A DNA stretch of 64,000 nucleotides from a virus (lineage: Duplodnaviria > Heunggongvirae > Uroviricota > Caudoviricetes). This document shows, piece after piece, positions 4,529-46,012 of the stretch (position 1 is its first letter; every line of letters starts with the position of its first letter). The notes beneath the pieces were generated by a model. It did no database searches and was not told where the DNA came from. It saw nothing but the letters and a program-made list of their open reading frames with translations. The DNA lies in the IMG/VR virus record IMGVR_UViG_2506381017_000002. One strand, given 5' to 3'. The position numbers and the translations under genes were made by a program.

Positions 4529-4930
4529 ATGAGTAAAGAAAAATGTCCATACTGTCATTTTGTTGACATTAACGATCCCGATAGCGATCCATTAGATACC
4601 ATTATCAGCTCAGGTAACGACATAGAACTATTTATGCGACCCAATCGAACATTTGAAGCTATTCTTAACTGTTATGACGGAGTTGATGGAGATTATAGTT
4701 TCGCATACAAGATTCCTGACACACTTAATTATTGTTATCACTGTGGCCGTCGCCTAGATGGGAAAGAGGGTATAGACTGGAACGATTTATTAATAAAGAT
4801 TGGATTCACATTATCATTACTTCTCGTCCCTATTAGCATAACTTTAGCAGTTACAGTTAGTCCAAACTTCTTATGCGGAGTTATGTTGGGTATTATTTTG
4901 CCAGTCATTTCTATTGTTTGGGTGGATTAG
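4529..4930 (+). CDS. zinc-ribbon protein with C-terminal transmembrane anchor
   Basis: CPYCHF ... CYHCGRR followed by two hydrophobic helices. Confidence 0.5.
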   Translation: MSKEKCPYCHFVDINDPDSDPLDTIISSGNDIELFMRPNRTFEAILNCYDGVDGDYSFAYKIPDTLNYCYHCGRRLDGKEGIDWNDLLIKIGFTLSLLLVPISITLAVTVSPNFLCGVMLGIILPVISIVWVD

Positions 4931-4943
4931 GAGGTTAATAAAT

Positions 4944-5795
4944 ATGGCAATTAAATTATTTAGCATAGGATTATTTGACGAGAAAGATGAGCTCACCAGT
5001 ATCAATATGAAAATTTTCCCGGATCACACACCGCTTATTCATGTAGATATAGAAGGATTCGAGCTATCTACCCTCAAGCTCGAAATTAGATGGGATTATG
5101 AGAATGATTCTGAATTAATGGATCTCATTTATATTACTCGTTATCTACAAGACAAAGGTGCTCCTCATATTGGCTTGACGATGCCTTATATCCCTAATGC
5201 ACGTTATGATCGGATCAATAACGACGATGAAGTCTTTACACTCAAATATTTTGCCGAAGTAATTAATTCCCTTCACTTTGATTATGTGGATGTTTTAGAT
5301 GCACATTCGAACGTTAGTCTTGCATTGATTGATAGAGTACGGCAAATAGATGTTGCTCCGTTAATTCAAAAGGCTATTGACGACTTTAAACCAGATGTTC
5401 TGTTTATGCCTGATGAGGGAGCACATAAACGTTACTCAAAGATGTTCACCCTTCCGTCAACGTTTGGTATTAAGACACGTGATTGGAGAACGGGTGAGAT
5501 CAAAGATTACTTCTTGGCTGAACAAAATTTAGTTGAAGATAGGCGTGTATTAATTATCGATGATATTTGTTCAAGAGGTGGTACTTTCTATTACTCTTCA
5601 AAATTACTTCGTGATAATGGTGCTACTTCAACTGGTTTATATGTAACCCATTGCGAAGAGAACATCGCTAATGGCAATTTACTCAATAAAGAAAAATCAG
5701 GCATTGAACAAATTTATACAGCTAATCCACTATGGCATAGAGATATGACCACATCAGTATATTCGCCATTAGACGAGATTAAAGTCATTGACTAG
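4944..5795 (+). CDS. ribose-phosphate pyrophosphokinase family protein (Prs-like; candidate ADP-ribose pyrophosphokinase Adps of NARP1)
   Basis: GGAGG RBS before the ATG at 4944. PYIPNARYDR matches the Prs PYYGYARQDR region, MPDEGAHKR matches the Prs SPDHGGV region, and the PRTase loop VLIIDDICSRGGT is present. The protein is 283 aa. Confidence 0.8.
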   Translation: MAIKLFSIGLFDEKDELTSINMKIFPDHTPLIHVDIEGFELSTLKLEIRWDYENDSELMDLIYITRYLQDKGAPHIGLTMPYIPNARYDRINNDDEVFTLKYFAEVINSLHFDYVDVLDAHSNVSLALIDRVRQIDVAPLIQKAIDDFKPDVLFMPDEGAHKRYSKMFTLPSTFGIKTRDWRTGEIKDYFLAEQNLVEDRRVLIIDDICSRGGTFYYSSKLLRDNGATSTGLYVTHCEENIANGNLLNKEKSGIEQIYTANPLWHRDMTTSVYSPLDEIKVID

Positions 5796-5805
5796 GAGGA
5801 ATTAA

Positions 5806-7326
5806 ATGACAAAACCGTATTTAGCAACAGATTTTTATAAAGTATCACATGCAATGAATCGACTAAATAAGCCGGCTCTTCACCCAGAAAGTATTGAATA
5901 TATTTATGAGGTGTTGACTCCACGTCAGAATTCATTCTTCCCATACGATGACAAGATGGTTGTGTTTGGCTATGAATTCTTTGTTGCACGTCTGTTGGGC
6001 GAATGGCAAACAGAGTTCTTTGACAAAGATTGGGAAGATATTAAGTTAGACTTTTATGTATTTTTCGAAATGTCAGATAGCCTTGTTTATCGTTCAATGG
6101 TTGAAAAACTCAAGCAATTACATGATTTGGGACATTTACCATTAGAAATTCGGTCATTGCCTGAAGGGTCATTAGTCCCAATGAGAGTTCCTGTGTTATC
6201 AATCAAAAATACTGATCCAGATTTCTATTGGCTTCCAGGTTTCTTAGAAACGACACTACTCGCAAATACTTTTGTAACAACTGGTACTGCTAGTGTGGCA
6301 CGTCAATTCCGTAAGATCGCTGAACATTATGGTGATGTTTCAGCAGACGATAAGGCTTATATTGATTTCCAATTCCACGACTTTTCACAACGAGGACAAC
6401 ATGGAGATGATGCTGCCGTTCTTTCTGGTATCGGACACTTGTCTAGTTTTAAGGGGACAGATGCAGTTCCAGCCGTAGATGAATTATTAAGAGTATATGG
6501 TGGACTTACCCCAGATGAACTAATCGGTGGATCAGTTGTTGCTACAGAACATTCAATTATGGAATCACTTGGTGGTGAATTTGGAACAGATAAGGAAGGT
6601 CAACTTAAAGCTTATGAGTCTTTAATAGATCGAAATCCAGATGGCGTCATTTCTGTTGTTTCAGACACCTACCAATATTGGGACGTTATTGATTATGTAT
6701 TGCCACAACTTAAAGAAAAGATTATGGCTCGTGATGGCAAGTTAGTTATTCGTCCTGATTCTCTTGATGAGTATCGTAAGGCGACTGGTCAAACTATTAA
6801 GTCTACTGAAGATCAATTAGTAACAACACTCCAGGCGTTATATGACACTTTCGGCGGCCATATTAATTCTAAGGGATACAAAGTGCTTGACCAACATATC
6901 GGATTAATTCACGGCGAAGGAATTACCCTAGATAATATTCGACCAATGTTTGATGCCATCTTAAATGCTGGTTTCTCTGCCGAAAATATTGTTTTCGGAT
7001 TAGGAGCTTATGTTTATTCCGTTAAGGTTTCACGTGATGATTTCGGACAAGCTTTGAAAGCTACCGCTTGCGTTATTGATGGTAAAGAGAAAGTTATTTT
7101 TAAGGCGCCTCATTCAAAAAAAGAAGCGTTCAAGCGTTCTCCTCATGGGGCGGTATCAATCCATGGTAAATCTGGGGAATATCATATGATTGAAAATTTG
7201 ACTATGGAAGAAGCAGCTAACGATAAAGATAATCAAATGACTTTGCTGTACAGTCCCAAATACGGTAATCGTGTCACATCATTACGAGATATTCGTCAAA
7301 AAATCTTAGATGGATTAGATAAGTGA
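5806..7326 (+). CDS. nadV: nicotinamide phosphoribosyltransferase family protein (NadV / candidate Namat)
   Basis: N-terminal LATDFYKVSH matches the NAMPT LATDSYKVTH signature. The protein is 506 aa with a strong AGGAGG RBS, 10 nt after the Prs-like gene. Confidence 0.8.
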   Translation: MTKPYLATDFYKVSHAMNRLNKPALHPESIEYIYEVLTPRQNSFFPYDDKMVVFGYEFFVARLLGEWQTEFFDKDWEDIKLDFYVFFEMSDSLVYRSMVEKLKQLHDLGHLPLEIRSLPEGSLVPMRVPVLSIKNTDPDFYWLPGFLETTLLANTFVTTGTASVARQFRKIAEHYGDVSADDKAYIDFQFHDFSQRGQHGDDAAVLSGIGHLSSFKGTDAVPAVDELLRVYGGLTPDELIGGSVVATEHSIMESLGGEFGTDKEGQLKAYESLIDRNPDGVISVVSDTYQYWDVIDYVLPQLKEKIMARDGKLVIRPDSLDEYRKATGQTIKSTEDQLVTTLQALYDTFGGHINSKGYKVLDQHIGLIHGEGITLDNIRPMFDAILNAGFSAENIVFGLGAYVYSVKVSRDDFGQALKATACVIDGKEKVIFKAPHSKKEAFKRSPHGAVSIHGKSGEYHMIENLTMEEAANDKDNQMTLLYSPKYGNRVTSLRDIRQKILDGLDK

Positions 7327-12048: not shown

Positions 12049-12241
12049 TACGATTACAATAAAACAGTTAAACTATAGAATAATACTGCTCACAGCGTCT
12101 AAAATAATCCTTGACAAGTTTTGACTCCCACTAATTTACAAATGTGATACAATAACATTAAGGAAATCCAAATACGGATTCCTACCTTCCTAAGATGGCT
12201 CCACTTTATGTGGGGCTTTTCTTTTTACTTATTTTTAGTAA

Positions 12242-12353
12242 AGAAGTGTTATTTGTTTGTAATAACACTTCCTAATTTAAGCTATTTTAGCACTCATTTT
12301 TCTGGTAAAATAAAGAAGTGTTATAATTCTATATATCAAAAAATAACACTTGT
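12242..12353 (+). promoter_or_regulatory. two inverted-repeat operator-like sites (GAAGTGTTAT / ATAACACTTC)
   Basis: GAAGTGTTAT-N8-ATAACACTTC at ~12242-12272 and GAAGTGTTAT-N24-AATAACACTTG at ~12311-12353, directly upstream of the recombinase start at 12361. Confidence 0.4.
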
Positions 12354-12360
12354 ATTAGGT

Positions 12361-12960
12361 GGTTTTATGAAACAGTTAGTCTTACCCATAAAAGACTCTT
12401 ATGTGTTATCTGAAGTACAAGATACGTTACTAAATAACTTTAGAGCTGGTGTTAGAAACTACACTATCTTTCAAGTTGGAAAAGCTACCTTACTTCGAGT
12501 AAGTGACGTACTCAGATTAAAACAAGAAGATGTCTATGATAAATATGGTGAGGTAAAAAGAAATGCATTTATTAAAGACAAAAAGACGGGGAAGCAAAAT
12601 ACATTGTATTTAAAACCTGTCCGTGAAGATTTAGAAAATTACAAAAAATGGTTAGAAGAAAATGATTATTATTTAACAACGCCCTGGTTATTTCCTTCAA
12701 CTACCAGACCCAACAAACATATTGATGAAAGGCAATATTATACGGTCATGCACGAAGTTGGAGATCTCTTGGACATTCCATATCTTGGAACACACACTAT
12801 GAGAAAGACTGGGGCATATCGAGTTTATGTACAGAGTAATTATAATATCGGATTAGTCATGTCATTACTTAACCATTCATCAGAAGAAATGACCCTGAGA
12901 TATTTGGGATTAGATCAAGTATCCCGAGAAAGATTGTTGGACAAGGTCGATTTTGGGTAA
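12361..12960 (+). CDS. short tyrosine recombinase / phage-integrase-family protein
   Basis: AGGTGG RBS before ATG 12361. C-terminal catalytic signature LGTHTMRKTGAY ... LLNHSSEEMTLRYLGL (H-x-x-R ... H ... Y). Confidence 0.6.
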   Translation, partial: GFMKQLVLPIKDSYVLSEVQDTLLNNFRAGVRNYTIFQVGKATLLRVSDVLRLKQEDVYDKYGEVKRNAFIKDKKTGKQNTLYLKPVREDLENYKKWLEENDYYLTTPWLFPSTTRPNKHIDERQYYTVMHEVGDLLDIPYLGTHTMRKTGAYRVYVQSNYNIGLVMSLLNHSSEEMTLRYLGLDQVSRERLLDKVDFG

Positions 12961-16196: not shown

Positions 16197-16478
16197 CTAT
16201 GCTGCTTGCTCCATTTTAGTTAACTTAGTCCTCATCATTGCAGCTGCATGGCAATAAATTTCGTAACAAGGATCATCTTTTTCAAAGATTAATGCTTCGT
16301 TTAAATTAGGTGTCAAATATACTTCATTAACTTCAATATCAGAGGTCTTCATACCAAATCTACTCGTTAAGTGCTTGCCATCAACTCCACATACATATAA
16401 CTGTCCAACCTTGATTAAATAAAATGTCTCTTTTATAAGGATCACCGTTCCTCTCTTGGGGTATCTAAATAGTCCCAC
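16197..16478 (-). CDS. hypothetical protein (GTG start, uncertain)
   Basis: 93 aa with a non-ATG start. Confidence 0.3.
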   Translation of the reverse strand: MGLFRYPKRGTVILIKETFYLIKVGQLYVCGVDGKHLTSRFGMKTSDIEVNEVYLTPNLNEALIFEKDDPCYEIYCHAAAMMRTKLTKMEQAA

Positions 16479-16629
16479 AATAGCTGTTTTACAAATGGTG
16501 GAGCCGCATTAAAGTTAATTGCTGGTCGAATTAGCACATCTTTATTATCGCAAATACTAACCTCGACCTGTCCTCCAGCCATTTGTTCTAATCGTTGTTT
16601 AAATTCAGTTGCTAACAATTAACAACCTC

Positions 16630-16770
16630 CTAACTAACTTCTTTAACTAAGAATCCTGTTGCAATGATAATTGGGACAATAATAAATAGGCTGATACCAC
16701 CATATGCAATAGTAGATACGCCTAAAAACGCCAATATTACTAATAATGAAATAATTGCTGTGTAACTCAT
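16630..16770 (-). CDS. small membrane peptide (46 aa)
   Basis: MSYTAIISLLVILAFLGVSTIAYGGISLFIIVPIIIATGFLVKEVS; its ATG overlaps the upstream stop (TAATG). Confidence 0.35.
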   Translation of the reverse strand: MSYTAIISLLVILAFLGVSTIAYGGISLFIIVPIIIATGFLVKEVS

Positions 16771-17045
16771 TACGCCACCGCCCAATTAAATGTTTTTGCT
16801 TTTGACCGCAAATAATCTAGCTTTCCCCACATCATTTGTTTGTAATGTTTAGTAGCGTTAATTCCACAAAGATAATCTTTCGCGTCTTGAAACGAATCAA
16901 AAAACTCGTATTCACAGCACATAGTAGATAAGTTTTCTATGAAATGATAGAGCTCTAATGGATTCTCTGTATTTACCACGTCCCAATAATCTCTTTTAAG
17001 GTACGATGGACTTTCTGAAGTGGGCTGGACTAAAATAATTTTCAT
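16770..17045 (-). CDS. hypothetical protein
   Basis: 91 aa. Confidence 0.45.
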   Translation of the reverse strand: MKIILVQPTSESPSYLKRDYWDVVNTENPLELYHFIENLSTMCCEYEFFDSFQDAKDYLCGINATKHYKQMMWGKLDYLRSKAKTFNWAVA

Positions 17046-17052
17046 AATCTAC

Positions 17053-17271
17053 CTACCGTCTTACTACTTCGCCATCTACAATAATCTTGTAATGGTCCTC
17101 GTCAGTATATAAGCGAATAATCCCATCAGACATTTCTAGACGGACACCATTCATATTAACGATACTGCTGCCACATGAGTGGTATTGATTTAAGTTTTTG
17201 CCAGTACCCATGTTAATTGAAATTGCTTCTTGATCTAATACGTTTTTGATTTTTGTAAATAAGTTTTTCAA
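17053..17271 (-). CDS. hypothetical protein
   Basis: 72 aa. Confidence 0.45.
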   Translation of the reverse strand: MKNLFTKIKNVLDQEAISINMGTGKNLNQYHSCGSSIVNMNGVRLEMSDGIIRLYTDEDHYKIIVDGEVVRR

Positions 17272-17288
17272 AGTCTCTCTCCTTTCTA

Positions 17289-17630
17289 TTAACTTGCTTG
17301 AATGATTAAGAAAACTAGTGTAAAAACTACTTCTACAAGAAAAATGCCTATAATAACAATTCCAAGTTTTTCGTCTTTATCAGACATTTGGTTACTAGAA
17401 TTCTCATGCTCTCCTTCGCCTTGTTCTATGTTATCTGGATTTAACGGTGAGGCAGGATTAGCAGGATTAAGTGGGCTAATAGGACTCGCTGGGTTGCTTG
17501 GATTAGTTAAGCTTGTTGGACTAGCTGGATTAGATGGTGACATCATATCAGCATGTACAGTTGAACTTGGATAAAAAGAAAAGCCAATAATGACTAAAAT
17601 TACTGTTAAGGTTGTAATTATTTTCTTCAA
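17289..17630 (-). CDS. secreted/membrane protein with PxNPAS proline-rich repeats
   Basis: Signal peptide, then PSNPASPTSLTNPSNPASPISPLNPANPASPLNPDN, then a C-terminal TM helix. Confidence 0.5.
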   Translation of the reverse strand: MKKIITTLTVILVIIGFSFYPSSTVHADMMSPSNPASPTSLTNPSNPASPISPLNPANPASPLNPDNIEQGEGEHENSSNQMSDKDEKLGIVIIGIFLVEVVFTLVFLIIQAS

Positions 17631-19046: not shown

Positions 19047-19400
19047 TCATGACCAGGGTTCCACATATGGTCCCGATTCAACACTAAAACTGTTACCTTT
19101 CCAAATCTTCTCTAACGCATCTTTCATCTCGGCATTAACCATAATCGGGTCACAACCGAAAACCGTAAGCTTGTATCTGCGTTCATTGTCCTGTGATAAC
19201 TCTTTTTCTGCGTCACGTCTAAATCTATATTCTTGACCATCTAGTTTGATATAGATATTTTGGTCGTAATTATTCTTTGGTACTTGTTCAAAGAACTTTT
19301 TTCGCTCGCCTGCGTCAGCAAACAGATCAACATTATTATCATAAGCACTGGCTAACAATACTTTGTTACCCTTAGTATCTTTGTAATATACAGTAATCAT
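19047..19400 (-). CDS. hypothetical protein
   Basis: 117 aa. Confidence 0.45.
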   Translation of the reverse strand: MITVYYKDTKGNKVLLASAYDNNVDLFADAGERKKFFEQVPKNNYDQNIYIKLDGQEYRFRRDAEKELSQDNERRYKLTVFGCDPIMVNAEMKDALEKIWKGNSFSVESGPYVEPWS

Positions 19401-19426
19401 TTTTATCCTCCTTAAAAACTGATATG

Positions 19427-19621
19427 CTACTTAAGTCTTAATCCCGCTTTAATAGATTGCTCAATGCCGTAATTACTTAAATCTAACTTACGCACTCGTT
19501 TATGTTTACCACATTTACTACACTGATAGATTTCTGACATATTGCTACCGTCCCAGTAGGGGTAATAGATGTCGTCTAACCACTTATAATCATGTTTACA
19601 AAATAACTGTTTAAGCTGCAT
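19427..19621 (-). CDS. small zinc-finger-like protein
   Basis: C.H ... CSKCGKH. Confidence 0.4.
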   Translation of the reverse strand: MQLKQLFCKHDYKWLDDIYYPYWDGSNMSEIYQCSKCGKHKRVRKLDLSNYGIEQSIKAGLRLK

Positions 19622-19949
19622 TTTTCTTAACCTTTACAAATTTATCCTGAGTCGCTGACCCTTCATATATTGTTTCATCATACTCAAATTCATTTCTATA
19701 CATTTCAATATTCCCGACAACTTTTTCTGCTTCAGATAAGTATCGGTTGTATCTATTAAGTTGATATCTGCGAATACGAATTGTGTCATGATCAAACCAA
19801 TAACGCTCATCATTATTAGTTGCTTCCGCTTCCTTGTCAGCATAACTTAACGCTAATTCATATGAATCAGTAACACCAACTACATATTCTGCATAATCGC
19901 TATACCAACCACTAGCGTGAATTACTACATAAATGTCTTTTGTTTTCAT
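19611..19949 (-). CDS. hypothetical protein
   Basis: 112 aa. Confidence 0.45.
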   Translation of the reverse strand: MKTKDIYVVIHASGWYSDYAEYVVGVTDSYELALSYADKEAEATNNDERYWFDHDTIRIRRYQLNRYNRYLSEAEKVVGNIEMYRNEFEYDETIYEGSATQDKFVKVKKNAA

Positions 19950-24383: not shown

Positions 24384-25121
24384 CTAAGCTGCGACTGGAG
24401 CTGGATCGTTAAACTTTTCAGCGCGTTCAGCCTTAATTTGTTCAAATTCTGATTGAGTCAACTTACCAAGTTCGACTAAGCGTTGTTCAATCAGATCCAG
24501 TACAGCATTACGATCACTGTCGCTGTTTACAAAGTCATACTTTCTCATGTCAATTCTTAAAACAGAAGACTGAGAGTATCCTTGGTACCAATGGCTGTAC
24601 GTCTCCCAAACCGATCTGTAATAATCAACTAATTTAGGATCTTCTGTTTCCATTTCTCGGCCACGCAGTTTAATATGATCTAACATAACTTCAAATGGCG
24701 CATCTAGATAAATAATTAGGTCTGGAATTCCATTAAATGGATGGGCAGCCACATCAGAAATCATATTTTGGTTAAGTTCAATATAGAGATCAAACATTGT
24801 TTGAGGAAATTCTCCACGTTTATAAAGATTAAAGGCCATTAGAGAATCGCTAAGCAAAGAACTGTCATAAACTGTGTTTACCATATTTTCATGTTCAGCA
24901 AGATATAACCCCTCTTTCAGTTGCTTAAACCGATAATTTAAAAACGCTATTTGTAAAGCAAAACTTAAATCGTTTCTACTCTTATTCCCATCAGCATAAA
25001 ACTCCTTTAGCATTGGGATATTTTCAACGTCTTCATAAAATCCTTTTGTCCCCAAATCCTTGGTTAAAATGCGGGTTAAACTTGTCTTCCCAATTCCGAT
25101 TGGTGCGTTAATAAAAATCAT
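24384..25121 (-). CDS. deoxynucleoside kinase (dNK/dAK-dGK family)
   Basis: P-loop APIGIGKTSL, an ERS-like DSSLLSD block, and the lid KLRGREMETE. Confidence 0.8.
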   Translation of the reverse strand: MIFINAPIGIGKTSLTRILTKDLGTKGFYEDVENIPMLKEFYADGNKSRNDLSFALQIAFLNYRFKQLKEGLYLAEHENMVNTVYDSSLLSDSLMAFNLYKRGEFPQTMFDLYIELNQNMISDVAAHPFNGIPDLIIYLDAPFEVMLDHIKLRGREMETEDPKLVDYYRSVWETYSHWYQGYSQSSVLRIDMRKYDFVNSDSDRNAVLDLIEQRLVELGKLTQSEFEQIKAERAEKFNDPAPVAA

Positions 25122-25831
25122 GCTGCCGTTAATTCCTTTCTTTTATGTGACATATTTTCATTAATAGGAGCAATTAACTCTTCGTTCCTTTTACCATGTT
25201 TATATCGGGCGTAGAGAGTTAGTCTGTCTATTCCAGTTTCCCTTGCCAACTCGCCATATGTGTAATACTTTCCGCAAACTTTAATATAGACATTATTGCG
25301 TTTATTATTAGCTTGAACATATCTGTCAACCCATCTACAATTTTGGGGTTCATAATTGCCGTTAACGTCTATTCGATCAATAGATTGTTCGATACCTGTT
25401 TTATTAATATCAAATCCATTTTCTAGTGCCCATTTCTTAAAGTTCTTATAGTCGTTCCATTCAGTACATACGCTAATTCCTCGCCCACCATATTTTGGAT
25501 AGGCTTTGTCATTGGAGTTCATACACCGCTGTCGCATATGAGCCCAAGTATGATAAAGACGGTGATATTTACTATCTTTTTGGCTATCTGCTGTCTTATA
25601 TTTTTTATGAAAATTATTACCTTGTACGAGCTCTGCATTATAGCAACCACACGATAATGTCGATCGACTTTTATTCACACCTAGTCCATCGGTTCGAAAC
25701 ACCTTTTCAGTACCGCAATCACAGCGACATAGCCAACCGCCCCTTGTGTAACGACCATTAGGAATTCTTCTCTTCTCAATCAACGTCAGCCTTCCAACTC
25801 TTTTACCTGGATAGCATTCAGCCTCTTTCAC
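25118..25831 (-). CDS. Cys-rich phage protein, HNH/homing-endonuclease-like family (paralog of the plus-strand gene at 7960-8787)
   Basis: GTG start with an AGGAGGG RBS. Shares CYPGKRVGRLTLIEK ... CRCDCG ... YHTWAHMRQRC ... YGGRGISVCTEW..F..W with the plus-strand gene at 7960-8787. Confidence 0.5.
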   Translation of the reverse strand: MKEAECYPGKRVGRLTLIEKRRIPNGRYTRGGWLCRCDCGTEKVFRTDGLGVNKSRSTLSCGCYNAELVQGNNFHKKYKTADSQKDSKYHRLYHTWAHMRQRCMNSNDKAYPKYGGRGISVCTEWNDYKNFKKWALENGFDINKTGIEQSIDRIDVNGNYEPQNCRWVDRYVQANNKRNNVYIKVCGKYYTYGELARETGIDRLTLYARYKHGKRNEELIAPINENMSHKRKELTAA

Positions 25832-25957
25832 TCAATCCCTCCTCTTAAATTTTTGTATACAAAAAGCGTCACCAGATTCTAATCAATCTCGCAAAGTGAC
25901 GCTTATTTATATGTCTCGTTATAAATACGTAATAAAGAATTTCGCTAATTATAGCTA

Positions 25958-26024
25958 TGGGACGGGTGGGATTCGAACCCACGACATTGTGCACTTGTTC
26001 TACCAAACTGAACTACCGACCCTG
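25958..26024 (-). pseudogene. tRNA-like element (truncated anticodon arm; probable tRNA pseudogene)
   Basis: Acceptor GGGTCGG/CCGTCCC with one mismatch; D arm GTTC-AGTTTGGTA-GAAC; T arm GTGGG-TTCGAAT-CCCAC. Only ~65 nt, with about 8 nt missing between the D and T arms. Confidence 0.4.
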
Positions 26025-26295
26025 CTTGCTTTAGTACATTCAGAAAGCATTCCAAAGATCTTATTTTAAGCTCACAAATTTATTACACGGATAGGAGCTA
26101 GGTTCTACGTTTACCTGAATCGCCGTGGTTTCTATAAGAAATTTCTAACAACGAGGGAGCTACCCTCCGGCTACATATTAACGGTGGTGTAACCTTAGAT
26201 GCCACGTTTCCATTTCAATTAAGAAGGTTGATAAAAACCTTTCATCACTGCGCTATAGCGCGTCTGCCAATTCCGCCACTCCGGCGATTCAGAAT

Positions 26296-26440
26296 TTGAT
26301 CCTATACGCCAGAGGTAGGACTCGAACCTACAAAATCTATAGCATTTTGTGACTATGGAGTAGACGGGAGTCGAACCCGTGTCCAACCAAACCAGTTTCC
26401 AAATACATTTTAGACTTATTAGGATTATGTACTTAATTCT
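26296..26440 (-). other. two abutting tRNA-like elements of non-canonical structure
   Basis: T-arm-like CACGGG-TTCGACT-CCCGT plus CTACTCCA at ~26356-26400, directly followed by hairpin ACAAAAT-GCTATAG-ATTTTGT plus T arm GTAGG-TTCGAGT-CCTAC plus CTCTGGCG at 26307-26355. No matching 5' acceptor strands were found. Confidence 0.3.
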
Positions 26441-26791
26441 TAAATCAAAATAGTCACATAATCATTTTCCAAAGACTATTTTAATCGATCTAGTTTTAAT
26501 ACTTAGTCACACTTAAACTAGCAAATCATGAACTAAGACCAGAGGGGTGAAATGTGATAGCTAGTATCCTTATCTGGTATCAAGATATTAACCAAGTGCC
26601 TATAAGCTAGGCAGCTAAAGCTGTAACTCTATGGTTATTTGCTTTTATATTTAAATGAAAGTATTTCGGCGTTATCTTCCGTAAGTCGTATTTAGGGCTT
26701 TATTTGACTGTCGAATCCATAAACTACCCCAGAATAGAGCTTTAAATCATAGCTCCAAATAATAATTCAAATAGACTTCTTGATGAAGTCT

Positions 26792-26865
26792 ATAACATAG
26801 AAGGGATTTGAACCCTTGCTCTTACCCGCTAAGATAAAGCTCTACCAAGCTGAGACTTACTATGT
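26792..26865 (-). tRNA. tRNA-like gene (74 nt; perfect acceptor and T arm, internal arms not resolved)
   Basis: Acceptor AACATAG/CTATGTT 7/7, T arm AAGGG-TTCAAAT-CCCTT, D-loop-like CAGCTTGGTAGAGC. I could not fold the anticodon arm by eye. Confidence 0.45.
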
Positions 26866-27209
26866 TACTTATATATCAAAATATTTCTTGTGGTGGAACC
26901 CCTAACAGCTTTTGCCTTATTCCACATTTATTCCTACTAGCTTCATAGGATGGGCATAGTCCTTATCCCTGCTAAGGGGGCGCTGTCGTTACTCGCTGAA
27001 TATTTTAATATGTTCTTGTTAAGGGAGACTCATTTCAAGACCTCAACATCGGTCGGTTGAATGACTACTTACGCGCTAAGGATGTATACTATCCTTTCAT
27101 CATCTTCCCACCTGGTAGCTAACCCCACTCACGGATTCCGCACATGACTACGCTCCGTCAGCGAATATTGTACCTGTCTTTTATAAAATCCTGATTTTAA
27201 AAACCAGAA

Positions 27210-27282
27210 TGGACCTTGCAGGACTCGAACCTACGACCGAGCGGTTATGAGCCGCCTGCTCTACCAACTGAGCTAAAGGTCC
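27210..27282 (-). tRNA. tRNA-Met (anticodon CAT; could be Ile2 if lysidinylated)
   Basis: GGACCTT-TA-GCTC-AGTTGGTA-GAGC-A-GGCGG-CTCATAA-CCGCT-CGGTC-GTAGG-TTCGAGT-CCTGC-AAGGTCC-A gives a full canonical cloverleaf; no encoded CCA. Confidence 0.9.
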
Positions 27283-27428
27283 AAAATTTAGAGAACACGA
27301 TTAATCACTTCATGTTCTCAAAGTAACAAGGATAGTTGATTAGTCCTATCGCCGAGACGCCCATTCAAGTGCGTTGCTCTCCTTTACATACCAACCACTA
27401 CATTCAAAGCGTTGACGCTTGCTACTCT

Positions 27429-27515
27429 AACTACGAAGACAGGATTCGAACCTGCAACCTAGGATCAAGTTTTATCGGTGTACACCCCTATGCTCTAGCC
27501 AATTGAGCTACTTCG
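27429..27515 (-). tRNA. tRNA-like gene (~87 nt, long-variable-arm type; anticodon unresolved)
   Basis: Acceptor TACGAAG/CTTCGTA 7/7, D arm GCTC-AATTGGCTA-GAGC, T arm GCAGG-TTCGAAT-CCTGT; 36 nt between the D and T arms that I could not fold unambiguously. Confidence 0.4.
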
Positions 27516-27888
27516 TAAGAATAATGTCCACCCAGAAACGTTAGATGGTGAACTGATAAGTTAAGAGCTTGTTGACTGTGCTAAGTATCAGTCTGATTAC
27601 TCTTAGAGCTTATATCTTTTTGATGGACATTGACTTAGCAATTCTGTCCACGAATGATTAATTAGTAGGTTTACCACCAACCTACCTTGTAGAAACGCCG
27701 TTAAGCTTTCGTGGTCATGGTCACTCATTCTACTTTCACGGGGTTTGCCATGACACAAGCCGCTTGGTTTTTCTTAATAGCCTGACTAGGGCTACCAAAA
27801 TACAACAACTACCAATGGGCAGTGAAACGCCATGATTTAGGCGTATATCCAAATTCACTTGGTGTTCTCCTTGCATACCAAGGAGAAT

Positions 27889-27950
27889 AGCTTGGGAGGG
27901 AATTGAACCCTAAACGTACGCTGGCACCCTGCCATTATCACCAAGCCCCA
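27889..27950 (-). pseudogene. truncated tRNA-like element (~60 nt)
   Basis: Acceptor GGCTTGG/CCAAGCT and T arm TAGGG-TTCAATT-CCCTC, but only 26 nt between; no D or anticodon arms. Confidence 0.3.
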
Positions 27951-28800
27951 AACATAATACATGTATCGTTTTCGTTACTGTATTTTTACGTGCCAGTTGA
28001 AAACTGTTAATAAAAGTCGCAATGCACGGGCCCGTAGGCCATTGCCGTTTTGATAGGCTCGGCAACCTCTATATAAGACCGTTTTATTTTAACGGTGACG
28101 GTGCACCCCATCATTCAACCAATTAAGAGAGGGTTGATTCTCTCGACAATAACTGTCGATTAAGGAGTCAAGCTCCACGTTAATCTGATTAATCTTTAAC
28201 AAGACAGCCTCTTTCTTATCTGTCATACCTATTTCTTTTGCATTCACACGAACACCGAGGTGGGTAATTATTCTGTATTTCGAAGCCCTACGTGAGCCGT
28301 AATCAGATTTTATAAAAGAAGCATTTTACAGATGTATCTCCGTATGTTTATAGGGCTGGGCGCTGATTTAACAATATCTAGCCGATTTCAAGAGGTGATC
28401 AACCCCTCTAGCGCACTTGTTCATCGGGTATCCAACATGTCTCGTCCCGGGAAGCCCACACTTCCAGTGTAAGAGACTATATCTTCAAATACTTCCCGCC
28501 ATTAAATGACTTGCAATCTTATGTTTGTATTATTCAGGGTGTAGATTACTAGATCACCCGAACCCGCAACCTGAGAATTAAACCCAGCATTAACTTAGGC
28601 AATATCTGCATCGCAGGTAGTCGCACACGCAACCATAACAATAAGAAGCGTGGCATCAATCACATTACGAGCATTAGAAACTCCTCCAGTTGTGAGTAGG
28701 ATACCTCGTATAAATCACATTACTGCCATTTATACTCAAGCGCTTCAACCGACATACCTGTTGCCGGTTTTCCTATTATACATATCCATATAACAGAAAC

Positions 28801-28885
28801 ACCTAGAGAGGGATTTGAACCCCCGAACCCGAAGGAACGGTTTTGGAGACCGTCGCGTTTGACCAGACTTCGCTATCTAGGTATT
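28801..28885 (-). tRNA. tRNA with long variable arm and anticodon CCA (85 nt)
   Basis: ACCTAGA-TA-GCG-AAGTCTGGTCAAA-CGC-G-ACGGT-CTCCAAA-ACCGT-TCCTTCGGGTTC-GGGGG-TTCAAAT-CCCTC-TCTAGGT-G. The acceptor is a perfect 7/7, the D stem is 3 bp (class II like) and the variable arm is 12 nt. A UGG reader with class II architecture is unusual. Confidence 0.6.
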
Positions 28886-29037
28886 AATAACGTGCCATGC
28901 CAGCGTAAACACGTTATTAGATCGAATTGAAAAATGTAAAGGTAAAGGTATATGGAAAATATAACCTATTGAACATACGTTAGGTGTTTTTACATTCCAA
29001 ACGTTTTCCGTCATTTGGAACAACCTATTACTAGGAA

Positions 29038-29110
29038 TTTCGGTAATGGGAATCGAACCACATATCTACACTACATAATGTTGCTCTACCATTGAGCTAT
29101 ACCGAACCTT
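29038..29110 (-). tRNA. tRNA-like gene (T stem imperfect)
   Basis: Acceptor TTCGGTA/TACCGAA, D arm GCTC-AATGGTA-GAGC, anticodon-like ACATT-ATGTAGT..., but T stem TGTGG/CCCAT is mismatched. Confidence 0.3.
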
Positions 29111-29179
29111 GTCAAGATAAGACCACACATATCTTATCTGACTAACCAATCTTTCATATTTCGGAGGTGCTTAACCATG

Positions 29180-29260
29180 AAAGGAGTTCCCCAGCCCAAC
29201 CACTTAGCTGGGAATAACACAAAACGGAATCGAACCGCAGTGTGCCAACAAAAGTAGATA
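29180..29260 (-). other. tRNA-like fragment(s)
   Basis: CGG-TTCGATT-CCG T-loop-like motif and a D-loop-like GCTAAGTGGTTGGGC; no complete cloverleaf found. Confidence 0.2.
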
Positions 29261-29339
29261 AAAAGAAATGACAATTTATGAATCAACAATTTTTGATTAT
29301 CAAACACAGCACGTAAATGTTTAATAATTTCGGGCATTT

Positions 29340-29420
29340 CTGCCCTATGCGAAGCAGAGGAGTCGAACCTCTGTAAAGGACAAACATGGATGATTAAAAA
29401 TTAGAAAGGTGTGTTTGTAT
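29340..29420 (-). other. tRNA 3'-half-like element
   Basis: T arm AGAGG-TTCGACT-CCTCT plus acceptor 3' strand GCTTCGC-A; no matching 5' strand within 400 nt. Confidence 0.25.
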
Positions 29421-29500
29421 TATCAATTTAAAAGATATATAGGGAGTGTGTACTTCCAAAATGTACGTATTGCCTTTCCACTCTTCGCGATAGACCCACT

Positions 29501-29573
29501 TGGACTCGAACCAAGGTTGGTAGTTTAGAAGACTACTGTTCTATCCAGTTAAACTATAGGTCCATAATCAGGA
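29501..29573 (-). tRNA. tRNA-Arg (anticodon TCT)
   Basis: GGACCTA-TA-GTTT-AACTGGATA-GAAC-A-GTAGT-CTTCTAA-ACTAC-CAAC-CTTGG-TTCGAGT-CCAAG-TGGGTCT-A; all stems pair (two G-U wobbles in the acceptor); 73 nt. Confidence 0.85.
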
Positions 29574-29728
29574 TTACTCCTGAAATGTTGAAGTGATCAT
29601 TTGATCTGTGTGATTTATTAACGGGTCGCAACTGCGTTGCTCCTCATCAACGATATCTATAATAACCCAAATAAAAATATTTGTCAATTGATTTACCTAC
29701 AATTTAATATAAAATATTTTTGTTGTGT

Positions 29729-29971
29729 TCAAATAAAAGTTACTTTACCTTTTTGATCGCTATTAGAGAGGTAATATACAACAATATCTTCCATAGTCCA
29801 TTGCGCTTTAGGATCACCCTTTGTTAAAAGTTCATAACGATCTTTAGGATATTCAAACGTATCCTTTGAATGTTTTTTATAGTAGTCAAGTACGAAGTTA
29901 CGAAAACCATCTTCGCCATTCTCTTTGTTAAACATTTCTTTTTCAAACAATTTAATTAATGCTTTGTCCAT
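29729..29971 (-). CDS. hypothetical protein
   Basis: 80 aa. Confidence 0.45.
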   Translation of the reverse strand: MDKALIKLFEKEMFNKENGEDGFRNFVLDYYKKHSKDTFEYPKDRYELLTKGDPKAQWTMEDIVVYYLSNSDQKGKVTFI

Positions 29972-30227
29972 AATAACTGGCTACCTCCTTAATATTATCT
30001 GGTTTAAATCCTGACCAAGCGTCTCCTACGCCTTCTTCGTCCAGCCATTCTACTACGGGAAAACTGTGCCACCCCTGTTTACGTAAAACTTCTAACATTG
30101 GACTATCTTGAAGAACTGTTACCTCTTTATAATCTACGCCCAGCTTATTAAATAACTTCTTAGTCATCATACAAGCAGGACAATGCTCTTTTGTATAAAT
30201 CTTTACTTTAATGATGAATCCACCCAC
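29952..30227 (-). CDS. glutaredoxin-like protein (NrdH/Grx fold)
   Basis: KIYTKEHCPACMMTKKLF...VD (CPAC active-site-like) then ...FPVV. Confidence 0.6.
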   Translation of the reverse strand: MGGFIIKVKIYTKEHCPACMMTKKLFNKLGVDYKEVTVLQDSPMLEVLRKQGWHSFPVVEWLDEEGVGDAWSGFKPDNIKEVASYYGQSIN

Positions 30228-30558
30228 TTAATGTATCTTGTCATATTATCGCTCCTTAAACAAAAATGACCATCCTAACTCTTTTGTCAGAATAGCCATT
30301 TTATCTGTTATAATTAAAAAGTGCATTGGTCGAGACCCAATACACCAAAACCGTTTAAAGGGTGTGATTAAGTCGCAAGCCTTTTTGTCGAGTGTTTGGT
30401 TGGTGGTGTACGGCAATACACCAGAATAGGAACACTTGCCAGCTAACTTATCAACCCAACTATTGAAGTAATATAATTCTTTGATACGGTTATATTATAG
30501 CATGAGTTAGTGTTTTTATCTACCGTCTAGTTTTTCGGGACTAGGCGGTTTTTCTGTA

Positions 30559-31308
30559 TTATTGTACTTTATTTGGGCGCCAGTTGATCTTACCTACTAT
30601 CGCTGTTGCCGTGTAAAATAGCGTCATAGCAAGCATTGGTAACGCAGCCTGAGAATATCCATCCTTAAGTGCAGTAAACCATAATAGTACGTTCACAAAA
30701 TCAGAAATCAACCATAATGTGTATGTTGTTGAATATTGCCGGAAACATAACCAACTAGCCGTTCCACCAATAGCAAGTGCCAATGCGTCCCAAAGAGGGT
30801 TTGTATCATGAAGATAGATTCCAACATAATAAAGCACAAACCAAGCTGCTAAGATTGCAACAATTACATATAACCAGCCCATCTTAGTTAATCCTTTAAT
30901 TTCCGTACTCTTACCGCTCCATGTACGCCAATTCTTTAACAAAGGTAAATCAATCAAGAATAGAAATACCAGTTGATCTAAGACACTCCAATAATGGCCG
31001 GCACTAACATTGATAATGACATAAGCAATTACAGAAATACTTCCAAGCAATCCATTAATAGCATGACTGGATACTCGATTTCCTTCTGAATCATATCCAC
31101 CTGCGCCCATAGCAACTGTACACCACATACCAAAGAATATTCCGATAAATGATACAACCGCAATCCAATTAATTGGGTTTAATAACAGAATAGCTAATTG
31201 AAATCCTACGCCAAATCCAAATAGTGCCCAGGGGAACCGATCCCAACCTGTTAATTCTTCTTTTAACCATTGAAGATAAGTACCTTCAAAACGATATGCT
31301 TTATCCAT
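30559..31308 (-). CDS. multi-pass membrane protein, possible PnuC-like nicotinamide riboside transporter
   Basis: 249 aa with about 7-8 TM helices and W/N/G-rich helices typical of the NMN_transporter family. Its size fits PnuC (~230-250 aa). The call is tentative and motivated by the NAD genes elsewhere in the window. Confidence 0.4.
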   Translation of the reverse strand: MDKAYRFEGTYLQWLKEELTGWDRFPWALFGFGVGFQLAILLLNPINWIAVVSFIGIFFGMWCTVAMGAGGYDSEGNRVSSHAINGLLGSISVIAYVIINVSAGHYWSVLDQLVFLFLIDLPLLKNWRTWSGKSTEIKGLTKMGWLYVIVAILAAWFVLYYVGIYLHDTNPLWDALALAIGGTASWLCFRQYSTTYTLWLISDFVNVLLWFTALKDGYSQAALPMLAMTLFYTATAIVGKINWRPNKVQ

Positions 31309-44727: not shown

Positions 44728-45768
44728 TTATTTTAGTACTTTGTGCTCCTTACCAGTACGATAAACTGTATTTTCTATTTCTGGACGTGAGTGAATTAAC
44801 ATTAATAATTGTTCTTTTGAGAGCTTATCAATTTCTGTGTAATCATAATTGGTTGTTAGCATTGCTGCTCCAGTCATTGTTGGGTCTTGTTGTGAATGGA
44901 TATATTTTTCTGTGTTCACGATACTCTCGTGATCTAGGAAATCTTTTACTAACATAATATCTTTAGTTTGGTAATAAAGAGTAGTGGCAGCTCCTGCACG
45001 CAATGAGTGTGGTGTTAATTGGTGATTTATTTTCTTACTAAATTCTCTAAGCGCATTCTTTAATGTTTCATGCGAAAGAGAGTTAAATACGAATTCATTT
45101 TTATCTCCGTTAAACAATTTTTCTTTTAACTTATTGTAATAACTCAATTCAAGATATTTAGTATTTAATTTTTTCCCTTTATCAATAACGTCTAATCGTG
45201 CAAAACGTGTTCCATCATGTGCAATGACGAATTGAAAATCTTCCCATTTGATCGAAAATATCGCTGAAACACGGACGCCTGTTCTAAACATAAAATCTAC
45301 TAATAACGCATATTTTATTCCTAACGTTTCATCGGGATCATTACGATATCTTCTCTCTTTTAAAAATTCTTTTAATTGTTCTAACTCTTCACGAGAAATT
45401 GCCTCATGGTGCTTAACGTCATTTGTCTTTAATGATTTATTTGTTAAAACGTAATTATTTAAATCGTCAATATTTACACTTTTATAAATTCCCTCCTTCT
45501 TAATCATTTTCATAAGTGAACGAACTGCTATCAAGTGACCTTTAATCGTTGAATCCTTAATGTCTTTTTCTCGTAAAGGTGCAATAAATTTATTTAATAC
45601 ATCACTGAACCGAAGATGATTTAGGTCATATTCGCTAATCTCAACTGGCTCTTTATTAAACACCATTTTGCTGAAAAGCGTTACTGATGTTTTGTAATTG
45701 TGAATTGTATTAGCTGTAGCCAACGAATTAATCCAAGTTAAGTATACTTCGTGCATTTCTCTTTCCAT
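44728..45768 (-). CDS. tyrosine recombinase / phage integrase family protein
   Basis: GGAGGA RBS before MEREMHEV; FRTGVRVSAI (box I Arg), HSLRAGAAT, and LDHESIVNTEKYIH (His...Tyr). Confidence 0.75.
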   Translation of the reverse strand: MEREMHEVYLTWINSLATANTIHNYKTSVTLFSKMVFNKEPVEISEYDLNHLRFSDVLNKFIAPLREKDIKDSTIKGHLIAVRSLMKMIKKEGIYKSVNIDDLNNYVLTNKSLKTNDVKHHEAISREELEQLKEFLKERRYRNDPDETLGIKYALLVDFMFRTGVRVSAIFSIKWEDFQFVIAHDGTRFARLDVIDKGKKLNTKYLELSYYNKLKEKLFNGDKNEFVFNSLSHETLKNALREFSKKINHQLTPHSLRAGAATTLYYQTKDIMLVKDFLDHESIVNTEKYIHSQQDPTMTGAAMLTTNYDYTEIDKLSKEQLLMLIHSRPEIENTVYRTGKEHKVLK

Positions 45769-46012
45769 TGTAATTCCTCCATATCTCCTATAACACAATG
45801 CGGATTTTATAAATCAATACTAAAAACAGATAATTTTTATAGCACCTACAAATAAGTCAATTTCGAGCATTTAATTTTACTTACTCTTAAATAAATGATA
45901 TAAAAGCTATAATAAAAAAACGGAGCCATTTAATACAGCTCCGTTTTTTCAATATCAAGTGTATAAATATTTTAATTAAATATTATAAAATCCGCATTTT
46001 ATTTCGTTTTTC

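Follow-up and report, generated by a model that had tools for sequence, protein, structure and literature searches.

A virus of the class Caudoviricetes (IMG/VR record IMGVR_UViG_2506381017_000002), of which a stretch of 64,000 nucleotides was analysed (the window), carries on its minus strand an RNA-only array of about 3.8 kb (25,861-29,687), in which three decoding tRNAs and a complete transfer-messenger RNA (tmRNA) stand among at least nine, and about ten, odd tRNA-shaped modules, with 13 T-arm/acceptor modules within the array and with one strong promoter at its head and one terminator-like hairpin at its end. The "top half" of a tRNA, that is the acceptor stem and the T arm, is retained in all the odd modules, and four of them keep the D arm and the elbow too. 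They are read as non-decoding because they lack a 7-nucleotide (nt) anticodon loop, and the comparison of related arrays makes it very probable that they are maintained RNAs. None of the three options offered in an earlier note on this DNA (pseudogenes, tRNAs that are split or permuted, or tRNAs carrying unusual inserts) covers the main point, namely conserved non-decoding tRNA-shaped RNAs in a single non-coding RNA operon that includes a tmRNA; decay into pseudogenes is disfavoured, because the helices are kept by compensatory changes in diverged relatives and the odd elements share the 3' signature of the real tRNAs. As a whole, we somewhat favour the interpretation that the array would be transcribed from promoter to terminator as one non-coding RNA operon of a large Lactobacillaceae phage, and that its maintained non-decoding mimics would be excised by RNase P and RNase Z, to act as punctuation for the RNAs between them, as free mimics, or as both. 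On which of these downstream roles dominates, our confidence is much lower than on the maintenance of the modules.

The related phages used for comparison (L numbers) were recovered from IMG/VR through RecD-based and pattern-based searches (L001-L008, L022 and L023), from JGI and ENA metagenomes (L028, L032 and L035), and from ENA and Logan assemblies (L010, L012-L014, L017, L019 and L020). A gene-free array of 1.7-4.6 kb with tRNA-Arg(UCU) as its first gene occupies the same position in every relative, and the synteny, with the array lying between PnuC/glutaredoxin and dNK, extends to relatives with 45-55% RecD protein identity, in which the odd architectures also recur (the 65-nt arm-less form, the palindrome loop, the minis, the long-body and the permuted element). 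The RecD homologues at this level of identity lie on contigs of 100-145 kb and bear names from Limosilactobacillus, Lactobacillus and Liquorilactobacillus, so that the host of the phage is most likely a member of the Lactobacillaceae, these names being the sole basis for the assignment.

The layout of the locus is that of a single operon. Between the PnuC gene (30559-31308) and an HNH gene (25118-25831) there are about 3.9 kb without a credible open reading frame (ORF), and the genes around the array in the window encode a RecD-like helicase, a DnaB-like helicase, NAD-salvage enzymes, the PnuC transporter, a dTMP kinase and the HNH endonuclease. A motif scan for T arms detected 11 perfect T arms with a stem of 5 base pairs (bp), of the GGTTCRANTCC type, at 25966-29515 and on the minus strand only, as the earlier note had stated for all the elements, plus weaker ones at 29239, 29056 and 27912; elsewhere on the minus strand the loose pattern matched A+T-rich low-complexity sequence, not G-rich T arms. 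At the head of the array, a sigma-70-type promoter (29659-29687, minus strand; TTGACA, 17-nt spacer, TATTAT) with 11 of 12 consensus matches is the top site in 25700-30000, and its sequence is kept in L001 and L007. At the end, a GC-rich terminator-like hairpin, GCGTCAC...GTGACGC followed by TTTTT (25861-25902, minus strand), was read from the sequence, its loop exceeding the limit of the terminator scanner; this hairpin is kept in L020 and is around 81% identical in L012. No conserved ORF was found in the array. The best candidate, a 45-aa ORF at 28089-28226, was rejected as a gene, with its ATG lost in L020 and its frame shifted or diverged in L007, L032, L028 and L004, and an ORF at 29134-29337 was discarded as well, the differences in it being mostly non-synonymous by eye. 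Searches of the spacers against Rfam at E-values up to 10 returned nothing but tRNA and tmRNA.

The standard finders recognised only part of the array. ARAGORN called tRNA-Arg(tct) at 29489-29564, tRNA-Trp(cca) at 28799-28883, a "tRNA-???" at 27430-27518, tRNA-Met(cat) at 27209-27283 and a tmRNA at 26356-26730, and the Rfam tRNA model (RF00005, gathering score 29) gave seven matches in the array, four of them with an abnormal anticodon loop. The odd elements matched with scores of 33.7-51.8 bits, and their Rfam alignments place 4 nt (29038-29106), 21 nt (27431-27517), no nt (25958-26022) and 6 nt (26793-26866, counted by hand from the alignment) where a 7-nt anticodon loop belongs, in agreement with the abnormal interiors noted earlier at 29038-29110, 27429-27515 and 26792-26865. 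Their acceptor stems and 5-bp T stems with a TΨC-type loop are those of a tRNA, the acceptor being complete (7/7) in the elements E4, E6, E7, E8 and E10 and 6/7 in E13; a 5-bp anticodon stem with a 7-nt loop, U33 and a readable triplet is found in none of the odd elements. ARAGORN in bacterial, intron, lowered-threshold and mitochondrial modes rescued none of them as canonical, returning "???" or nothing and a single intron-mode Asn call, in such a way that both programs leave these elements outside the canonical cloverleaf; the condition under which the earlier note would have been refuted, canonical folding of all the elements by standard finders, did not arise, and its observation is confirmed. 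Two calls made in mitochondrial mode, mtRNA-Leu at 26774-26842 and mtRNA-Tyr at 26305-26363, were set aside as dubious, neither being a convincing cloverleaf. The tmRNA, the tRNA-Trp(CCA) at 28800-28882, a 54-nt mini at 28563-28616 and a minihelix at 29215-29246 had escaped the earlier note.

Double-sided substitutions that keep the helices were found in five separate families, those of E13, E6, E8, E4 and the E10 slot. E8 (27431-27517, minus strand) is an 87-nt cloverleaf with a 21-nt "anticodon" loop, made of the perfect palindrome GGTGTACACC and then an A-rich tail, CGATAAAACTTGA. Six distinct E8 homologues were aligned with a covariance model built in this analysis; all of the cells (100%) were paired, and 10 of the 21 pairs, distributed over all four cloverleaf helices, were changed on both sides, a value as high as this being found in 0 of 500 shuffles. 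The loop, of 21-27 nt, follows one design across lineages, a perfect palindrome plus an A-rich tail of the form GAGAAAAACWWGA, and the palindrome itself changes with the lineage (GGTGTACACC, ATGCGCAT, ACACGCGCGTGT and AGCATATGCT, and GTGTACAC in a second subfamily). Each of these palindromes is improbable given the composition of its own loop (P = 0.004-0.07). Palindromes of at least 8 nt are not enriched in the window (280 observed versus 337 expected) or in the array, and their recurrence at one loop position in diverged E8 homologues is the only significant palindrome signal. In a search of the window for an antisense target of the A-rich loop, matches were no more frequent than by chance.

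With introns allowed, ARAGORN called 27430-27518 a "tRNA-Asn(gtt) with a 14-nt intron". The unusual insert proposed earlier holds as a description of 27431-27517, and fails as an intron-containing decoder: no excision leaves a consistent anticodon in the family, and no Rfam intron family was matched. For group I introns, no Intron_gpI match was obtained in 25000-30500 at E-values up to 10, and the inserts measure 14-21 nt versus the at least 200 nt needed. No bulge-helix-bulge (BHB) junction was evident by eye in E8.

The other families show the same kind of maintenance in simpler structures. E13 (25958-26022, minus strand; 65 nt; Rfam 49 bits) consists of acceptor, D arm and T arm, with the 14-nt linker AAGUGCACAAUGUC in place of the anticodon arm; it differs by 1 nt from its L010 counterpart, and a 60-nt orthologue in L032 and L028 shows three compensatory acceptor pairs. 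A GTGCAC palindrome in E13 is not significant alone (P = 0.17). E6 (28563-28616, minus strand) is a 54-nt armless mini with a 7-bp acceptor, a small internal hairpin and a T arm with a TTTAATT loop, and its comparison with the 46-nt version of L012 (16350-16395) revealed four double-sided compensatory pairs in acceptor and T stem. E7 (27888-27947, minus strand) is a 60-nt mini with a 7-bp acceptor, a short hairpin and a T arm, without D and anticodon arms; its slot holds 55-nt minis in L012, L007 and L028, with compensatory acceptors (AGCCTTG/CAAGGCT versus AGTCCTG/CAGGACT in L012 and L007), and the spacer just upstream is conserved. The loci 25958-26024 and 27889-27950 had been described as truncated; both lack the anticodon arm, and their helices are kept by compensatory changes. 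E4 (29038-29106, minus strand; Rfam 51.8 bits), a 69-nt cloverleaf with a 5-bp "anticodon" stem and a 4-nt loop, keeps this tetraloop arm in seven relatives and has one compensatory pair, U-A to C-G at acceptor pair 6-63. E10 (26793-26866, minus strand; Rfam 33.7 bits), a 74-nt cloverleaf, has the 6-nt "anticodon" loop TTAGCG. In L001, L020 and L032 the E10 slot shows the same AACA...TGTT acceptor with other anticodon arms (loops ATGGTAA, CGAAATG and GTAAAGC); acceptor, D and T stems covary, with six compensatory pairs, and the unnatural anticodon arm differs per lineage.

Two further modules are reduced or expanded around the same top half. E3 (29215-29246, minus strand) is a bare acceptor/T-arm minihelix of 12 bp, GGCACAC-TGCGG-TTCGATT-CCGTT-TTGTGTT-A, kept in every relative that covers it (among them L001, L004, L005 and L007), and its L020 variant, AGCGCAT-TACGG...CCGTT-TTGTGTT, keeps the pairing through one-sided changes. 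E2 (29348-29488, minus strand) is a long-body tRNA-like element of 141 nt, with GCGAAG at its 5' end, a body of around 100 nt, a T arm at 29356-29372, and GCTTCGC with discriminator A at its 3' end. Its 5' acceptor strand starts 2 nt past tRNA-Arg and, across a distance of 137 nt, forms a 6-bp pairing with the 3' strand; the acceptor is also closed in the minimum-free-energy fold (z = -2.3). What had been taken as a lone 3' half at 29340-29420 hence has a 5' partner, 137 nt upstream at 29488-29483. The block of homology in L004, L005 and L007 starts exactly at ATCGCGAAG, the sequence upstream being different, and a long-body element of L010 has a perfect 7/7 acceptor with its strands 134 nt apart and starts 3 nt past a tRNA. 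In its topology E2 resembles a tmRNA. Directly after E2, a hairpin GGGCA-GAAA-TGCCC (29332-29345, minus strand) is replaced in L020 by GAGTA-GAAAA-TACTC, the stem being kept through compensatory changes.

One element, E12 (26252-26343, minus strand), is a circularly permuted tRNA-like cloverleaf, with acceptor 7/7, T stem 5/5, D stem 3/3 and anticodon (AC) stem 7/7. It begins with the 3' strand of the AC stem, GCUAUAG, followed by a 5-nt variable loop, the T arm, the 3' acceptor strand CUCUGGC and G73; after a 21-nt linker come the 5' acceptor strand GCCGGAG (26279-26285), UG, the D arm, G26 and the 5' strand of the AC stem, CUAUAGC. The connectors are of canonical length (2, 1 and 5 nt). Thus the two halves lie on one strand with the 3' half first, and between them they rebuild the acceptor, D, T and AC stems, as in permuted tRNA genes. 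Only 2 of 100,000 shuffles of the flanks satisfied the strict criteria for this fold. At the same site, six relatives carry another 5' half (GCUAGAG...), with another D arm and AC stem (AUCAUC/GAUGAU) in the same topology, a second version that 41 of 30,000 shuffles reproduced under relaxed criteria; for L010, unconstrained RNAfold recovered the permuted four-way junction. Among the versions, acceptor pair 3-70 is U·G, U-A or C-G, and pair 4-69 is A·C or G·U. The preservation of the topology in two unrelated sequence versions argues for maintenance of E12.

The AC stem of E12, GCUAUAG/CUAUAGC, runs into the flanking RNA on both sides, and since there is no anticodon loop E12 should not be a decoder. 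Of the split or permuted tRNAs suggested earlier, permutation is borne out for this one element. The 26307-26355 segment, listed then as a lone 3' half, has its 5' partner downstream, at 26279-26285, and the "tandem fusion" of 26296-26440 resolves into the 3' tRNA-like domain of the tmRNA (26356-26730) followed by the 3' part of E12. No BHB motif was seen by eye in E12, no dedicated BHB search having been run. The possibility that E12 and the RNA downstream form a two-piece tmRNA (RF04321) was rejected, with 18.2 bits versus the 47 needed (E = 1.3) and no permuted call by ARAGORN in the window. In L020, ARAGORN reported a "permuted tmRNA" (19265-19769), "Tag not identified", by pairing the 5' half of E12 with the 3' domain of the true tmRNA; this call is probably an artefact, and shows the E12 5' half to be tRNA-domain-like. 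A 12-nt perfect palindrome, GCGCTATAGCGC (26250-26261), overlaps the 3' strand of the D stem and the 5' strand of the AC stem of E12, and this stretch might instead fold locally into a hairpin (GCGC-UAUA-GCGC), in competition with the permuted cloverleaf.

All the modules of the window carry the 3' signature of the real tRNAs. A T directly follows the discriminator in 13 of 13 modules of the window and in 55 of 61 non-redundant modules over all the arrays, T being 30% of the array bases, and no module has an encoded CCA, like the real tRNAs of the array. RNase Z handles CCA-less precursors in Firmicutes, and an acceptor/T-arm minihelix suffices for RNase P and for the CCA-adding enzyme. A C or CCA after the discriminator represses RNase Z (PMC7479834). 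The long-body and permuted pieces start 2-3 nt past the discriminator of the preceding module. RNase P, RNase Z and the CCA-adding enzyme all recognise a tRNA by its top half, and the two nucleases would therefore excise the modules from a long primary transcript in the same way as their tRNA neighbours. Cleavage at the modules could then release and stabilise the structured RNAs between them, a punctuation role, or the modules themselves could be set free as CCA-tailed tRNA mimics that do not decode and that occupy the host factors to which tRNAs bind, and these two roles are not mutually exclusive. In the case of E12, a nick at the capped acceptor end would leave two pieces of RNA joined by tRNA-like pairing, in the manner of a two-piece tmRNA.

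Two of the RNAs between the modules are candidates for such release. The structured RNA at 27525-27650 (minus strand), a candidate cargo, has a consensus fold of 30 pairs with two compensatory pairs, and is around 80% identical in L012, the coding genes of which are 66-80% identical. Between E12 and E13, a conserved RNA of 190 nt (26023-26212, minus strand) with several hairpins is 96% identical in L010 together with E13, and gave no Rfam match and no conserved ORF. The spacers at 27985-28560 and 28620-28795 (minus strand) are long and relatively G+C-rich and have no match in Rfam or INPHARED, and in their region short islands are kept in L012 (28329-28305, 28182-28149 and 28016-27948).

More tentatively, two members of the array may represent new types of phage RNA, the permuted tRNA-like gene E12 and the family of palindrome-loop cloverleafs, which together with the armless minis would make up a "tRNA-mimic toolkit" for the manipulation of host tRNA-handling enzymes or defences. 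On this tentative proposal, E12 would be matured by RNase P and RNase Z into a two-piece RNA, with a tRNA-shaped head carrying a conserved body of about 190-260 nt, and the lineage-specific palindrome of E8 would be a site of self-specific dimerisation (kissing loop).

How far conservation can carry the argument depends on the history of the array, which is mosaic, with tRNA swaps exactly at gene boundaries. In L020, the closest relative, the array is 86-92% identical with replacements, versus 95.8% over 14.5 kb of coding DNA, and the block 26210-25955 is 96% identical in L010, versus 65-72% for coding DNA, the latter being also the identity of the flanking genes between the window and L010. 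Judged from these alignments the array is a cassette-shuffling hot spot; therefore, high identity alone is no proof of purifying selection, and the argument must rest on compensatory change. Genes of mobile elements lie at or inside the arrays: the HNH gene adjoins that of the window downstream (25118-25831, minus strand), a NUMOD4/HNH gene is found in L017 (16463-17110), and an IS605-type OrfB/TnpB gene (16286-17629) lies inside the L010 array, all of which is consistent with a cassette-like turnover.

Several points weigh against the interpretation that the odd modules are maintained and excised mimics. Most of the relatives are close, and recent transfer instead of purifying selection may lie behind some of the conservation, for example that of the block 96% identical in L010. 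As for covariation, in paralogous, tRNA-derived sequences it is evidence for the retention of stems but does not reveal their role, and the T after the discriminator could be merely inherited from tRNA ancestors. The E2 acceptor is only 6 bp long and the window copy has no covariation; one E8 homologue, that of L035, has a broken palindrome; and the 5' half of E12 in the window has 23 nt in common with tRNA-Leu(TAG) of L010 and L017, for which reason E12 may have descended from a truncated tandem pair. Finally, punctuation alone leaves unexplained why full cloverleafs with special loops are retained.

In the main rival, the decoy role is primary and any punctuation incidental, the mimics titrating tRNA-targeting defences or toxins of the host such as anticodon nucleases or acceptor/CCA-modifying enzymes. 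It would account for the retention of the top half and elbow with the anticodon region disabled in at least four different ways, and for the E10 slot, where the acceptor is constant and each lineage has its own unnatural anticodon arm, which looks like diversifying pressure; the decoders of the arrays (Arg-UCU, Asn, Lys, Tyr, Leu and Trp) also belong to classes that are typical nuclease targets, and the relative L019 encodes a tRNA-repair fusion enzyme. Phage tRNA clusters are documented, according to recent evidence, as anti-defence loci (PMC13096335). However, no defence system or target was identified, bait for an anticodon nuclease would be expected to copy the target loop whereas the loops here are absent or unnatural, no RNA-repair gene is present among the window ORFs scanned, and the conserved RNAs between the modules are left unexplained, so we regard a primarily decoy function as rather unlikely. 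The enzyme of L019 (12652-15150; 48% RecD identity) is a protein of 832 aa in which a polynucleotide-kinase-like AAA_33 domain is fused to domains of a metallophosphatase and of a T4 Rnl1-type RNA ligase, and it is encoded beside RecD; it is predicted to be of the tRNA-repair type, and neither a counterpart of it nor any tRNA-processing gene was found among the window ORFs scanned.

The remaining explanations fit the data worse. That the odd modules are debris of recombination, pseudogenes and fragments left by rapid cassette exchange that look conserved through close kinship or recent block exchange, is unlikely in our opinion, even though it agrees with the mosaic array and its precise boundary swaps, with an array less conserved than its flanking genes in the closest relative, with the HNH gene beside it and the TnpB element in L010, with the tRNA-Leu fragment in E12 and with the broken palindrome of L035. 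Debris would not explain double-sided substitutions in five separate families, the same odd architectures in phages at 45-55% RecD identity, a permuted fold rebuilt from unrelated sequence in two versions, or the retained T after the discriminator. Still less probable is that these are disrupted but functional genes, with an intron, split or permuted, that mature into ordinary decoders: the intron call for tRNA-Asn(gtt) and the order of the E12 halves, which is that of permuted tRNA genes (PMC3978253), speak for it, but neither group I nor any other intron family was matched at E-values up to 10, excision gives the E8 homologues no consistent anticodon, E12 has an AC stem that continues into flanking RNA in place of an anticodon loop, there is no anticodon arm in E13, E6, E7 and E3 that could be restored, and bacteria lack the BHB splicing endonuclease that permuted tRNAs use (PMC3978253). 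A function at the DNA level is just as improbable, with palindromes and tRNA fragments being sites for protein binding, recombination, attachment or homing. Perfect spacer-less palindromes do recur at one position, most of them with 6-bp restriction-type cores (TGTACA, TGCGCA, CATATG and GCGCGC), the window has two integrase-family genes, and tRNA and tmRNA genes are often integrase attachment sites (PMC4383910). Against this, palindromes are no commoner than by chance, their sequence changes per lineage while the surrounding RNA helices covary, the elements are co-oriented in one transcription unit, and the integrase genes lie around 13-15 kb from either end of the array.

We compared the array with known systems, and none of the closest analogues combines an operon of a bacterial phage with about ten structurally different mimics without anticodon; no description of such a locus was found in the literature searches made. 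The T4 tRNA cluster includes two small stable RNAs that are not tRNAs (species 1 and 2). The tRNA clusters of phages (T4, T5 and the arrays of mycobacteriophages) are similar in being co-oriented in large phages, with tRNAs for the rare codons AGA and AUA, and, as described in PMC6409571 and PMC13096335, in having an adjoining homing-type endonuclease gene and varying rapidly between relatives. Here, in contrast, at least 9 of 13 modules are non-decoding, and the spacers, found in no INPHARED phage, are 150-850 nt of conserved structured RNA instead of a few bases. With one-piece tmRNA (RF00023) the operon shares a true member, and E2 and the long-body element of L010 likewise have an acceptor/T arm enclosing a large body. 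Some phages, for the most part marine, have already been found to carry two-piece tmRNAs (RF04321; PMC9004378); E12 with the RNA downstream is like such tmRNAs in having the 3' acceptor piece first, and unlike them in its real D arm and tRNA-type AC stem and in lacking G3-U70 and a tag reading frame.

The permuted tRNA genes of Cyanidioschyzon merolae, other unicellular algae and one archaeon (PMC3978253) also place the 3' half ahead of the 5' half within a single transcript, with a short linker across the acceptor end, and the geometry of the E12 cloverleaf is fully canonical; those genes, however, mature by BHB-dependent circularisation into complete decoders (PMC3978253), whereas E12 belongs to a bacteriophage, has no anticodon loop and continues at its ends into flanking RNAs. 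Synthetic minihelices of acceptor and T arm resemble E6, E7 and E3, which consist of acceptor stem, T arm and a short connector. In mascRNA, which lies at the 3' end of MALAT1, and in the tRNA-like parts of the TMER transcripts of murine gammaherpesvirus-68, tRNA mimics that are not aminoacylated use their acceptor/T-arm domain to recruit RNase P and RNase Z, by which the ends of adjacent non-coding RNAs are defined. The phage modules share with them an acceptor/T-arm domain that abuts other non-coding RNA and has no encoded CCA (T74 in 13 of 13), and differ in that mascRNA and TMERs are eukaryotic, with one module per transcript, whereas the phage operon has about ten differing modules. Armless mitochondrial tRNAs always retain the anticodon arm (PMC3326299); E6 and E7, unlike them, keep the T arm and have no anticodon arm, and ARAGORN with -mt or -mtmam calls neither.

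Phage tRNA clusters are usually read as helpers in codon usage, and lately as replacements for tRNAs cleaved by defences, and their odd members are dismissed as pseudogenes. If the odd modules are excised and stable, they would be either a bacterial-virus counterpart of tRNA punctuation and of mascRNA/TMER processing, or decoys for tRNA-binding enzymes or toxins, and either role, if true, broadens the view of what viral "tRNA genes" do. If the reading proposed for E12 is true, circularly permuted genes of the tRNA type would no longer be confined to algae, one archaeon and tmRNA, and E12 would be a simple test system, since only RNase P and RNase Z would be needed. The palindromic loops of E8 predict dimerisation, which is directly testable.

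The decoding members of the array have their own peculiarities. The tRNA-Arg(UCU) (29491-29563, minus strand; ARAGORN, and Rfam with 62.4 bits) is canonical, as the earlier note had it, although 10 nt away from the 29501-29573 given there, and is the first array gene in every relative. The tRNA-Trp(CCA) (28800-28882, minus strand; ARAGORN, and Rfam with 56.7 bits) has a long, class-II-like variable arm, an unusual shape for a tRNA-Trp. Its body aligns with the tRNA-Tyr(GTA) of L004 (18627-18709), its extra arm is also present in the tRNA-Tyr of L019 (21525-21604), its anticodon arm is identical to the one found in the normal Trp tRNAs of L010 and L014, and it has A1-U72 and G73. This tRNA is thus a chimera, Tyr-type in its body and with the anticodon arm of Trp, and it is the only Trp decoder. 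The CAU tRNA (27210-27282, minus strand; ARAGORN, and Rfam with 69.8 bits), Met by its anticodon, is canonical, as previously described. Its GGACCUU acceptor suggests a lysidine tRNA-Ile2, presumably like those of Bacillus, and a close phage homologue is annotated as tRNA-Ile in one record (H28). A tRNA-Ile(UAU) with a long variable arm of around 26 nt and a covarying stem is present in L001 (18653-18746), L010 (20044-20139), L012 (17576-17669), L017 (16340-16435) and L020 (18411-18504), not in the window, which has the CAU tRNA instead; if the latter is tRNA-Ile2, these would be two distinct ways of reading AUA.

The one-piece tmRNA (26356-26730, minus strand) is complete, matching Rfam over its full length with 75.4 bits versus a gathering score of 47. 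It has the tRNA-like domain, the pseudoknotted body and a tag ORF ending in ALAA that are proper to RF00023; the acceptor GGGGTAG/CTACTCC provides G3-U70, and the tag, ANNHRVTALAA, is identical in L020, L022, L023 and L028.

The locus is not shared with the cultured phages in INPHARED, where only the CAU tRNA found matches and a 1.3-kb spacer found none. For RecD, the best identity to a named phage was around 32% among the matches listed, with two further records in the 60-80% band. A search through the dTMP-kinase gene yielded no relatives, and neither the RecD nor the E13 pattern detected host or prophage copies in GTDB representative genomes. Two tyrosine-recombinase genes of the phage integrase family are present in the window (12208-12960, plus strand, and 44728-45798, minus strand), and an integrase gene upstream of the replication module is retained in relatives; the phage may be temperate or a plasmid-like prophage. 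It also has many genes of nucleotide metabolism, among them thymidine kinase, dTMP kinase and nucleoside 2-deoxyribosyltransferase, and a set for NAD+ salvage, formed by a PRPP-synthetase-like phosphoribosyltransferase and a nicotinamide phosphoribosyltransferase (4914-7326, plus strand) together with the PnuC-type transporter of nicotinamide mononucleotide (30559-31308, minus strand).

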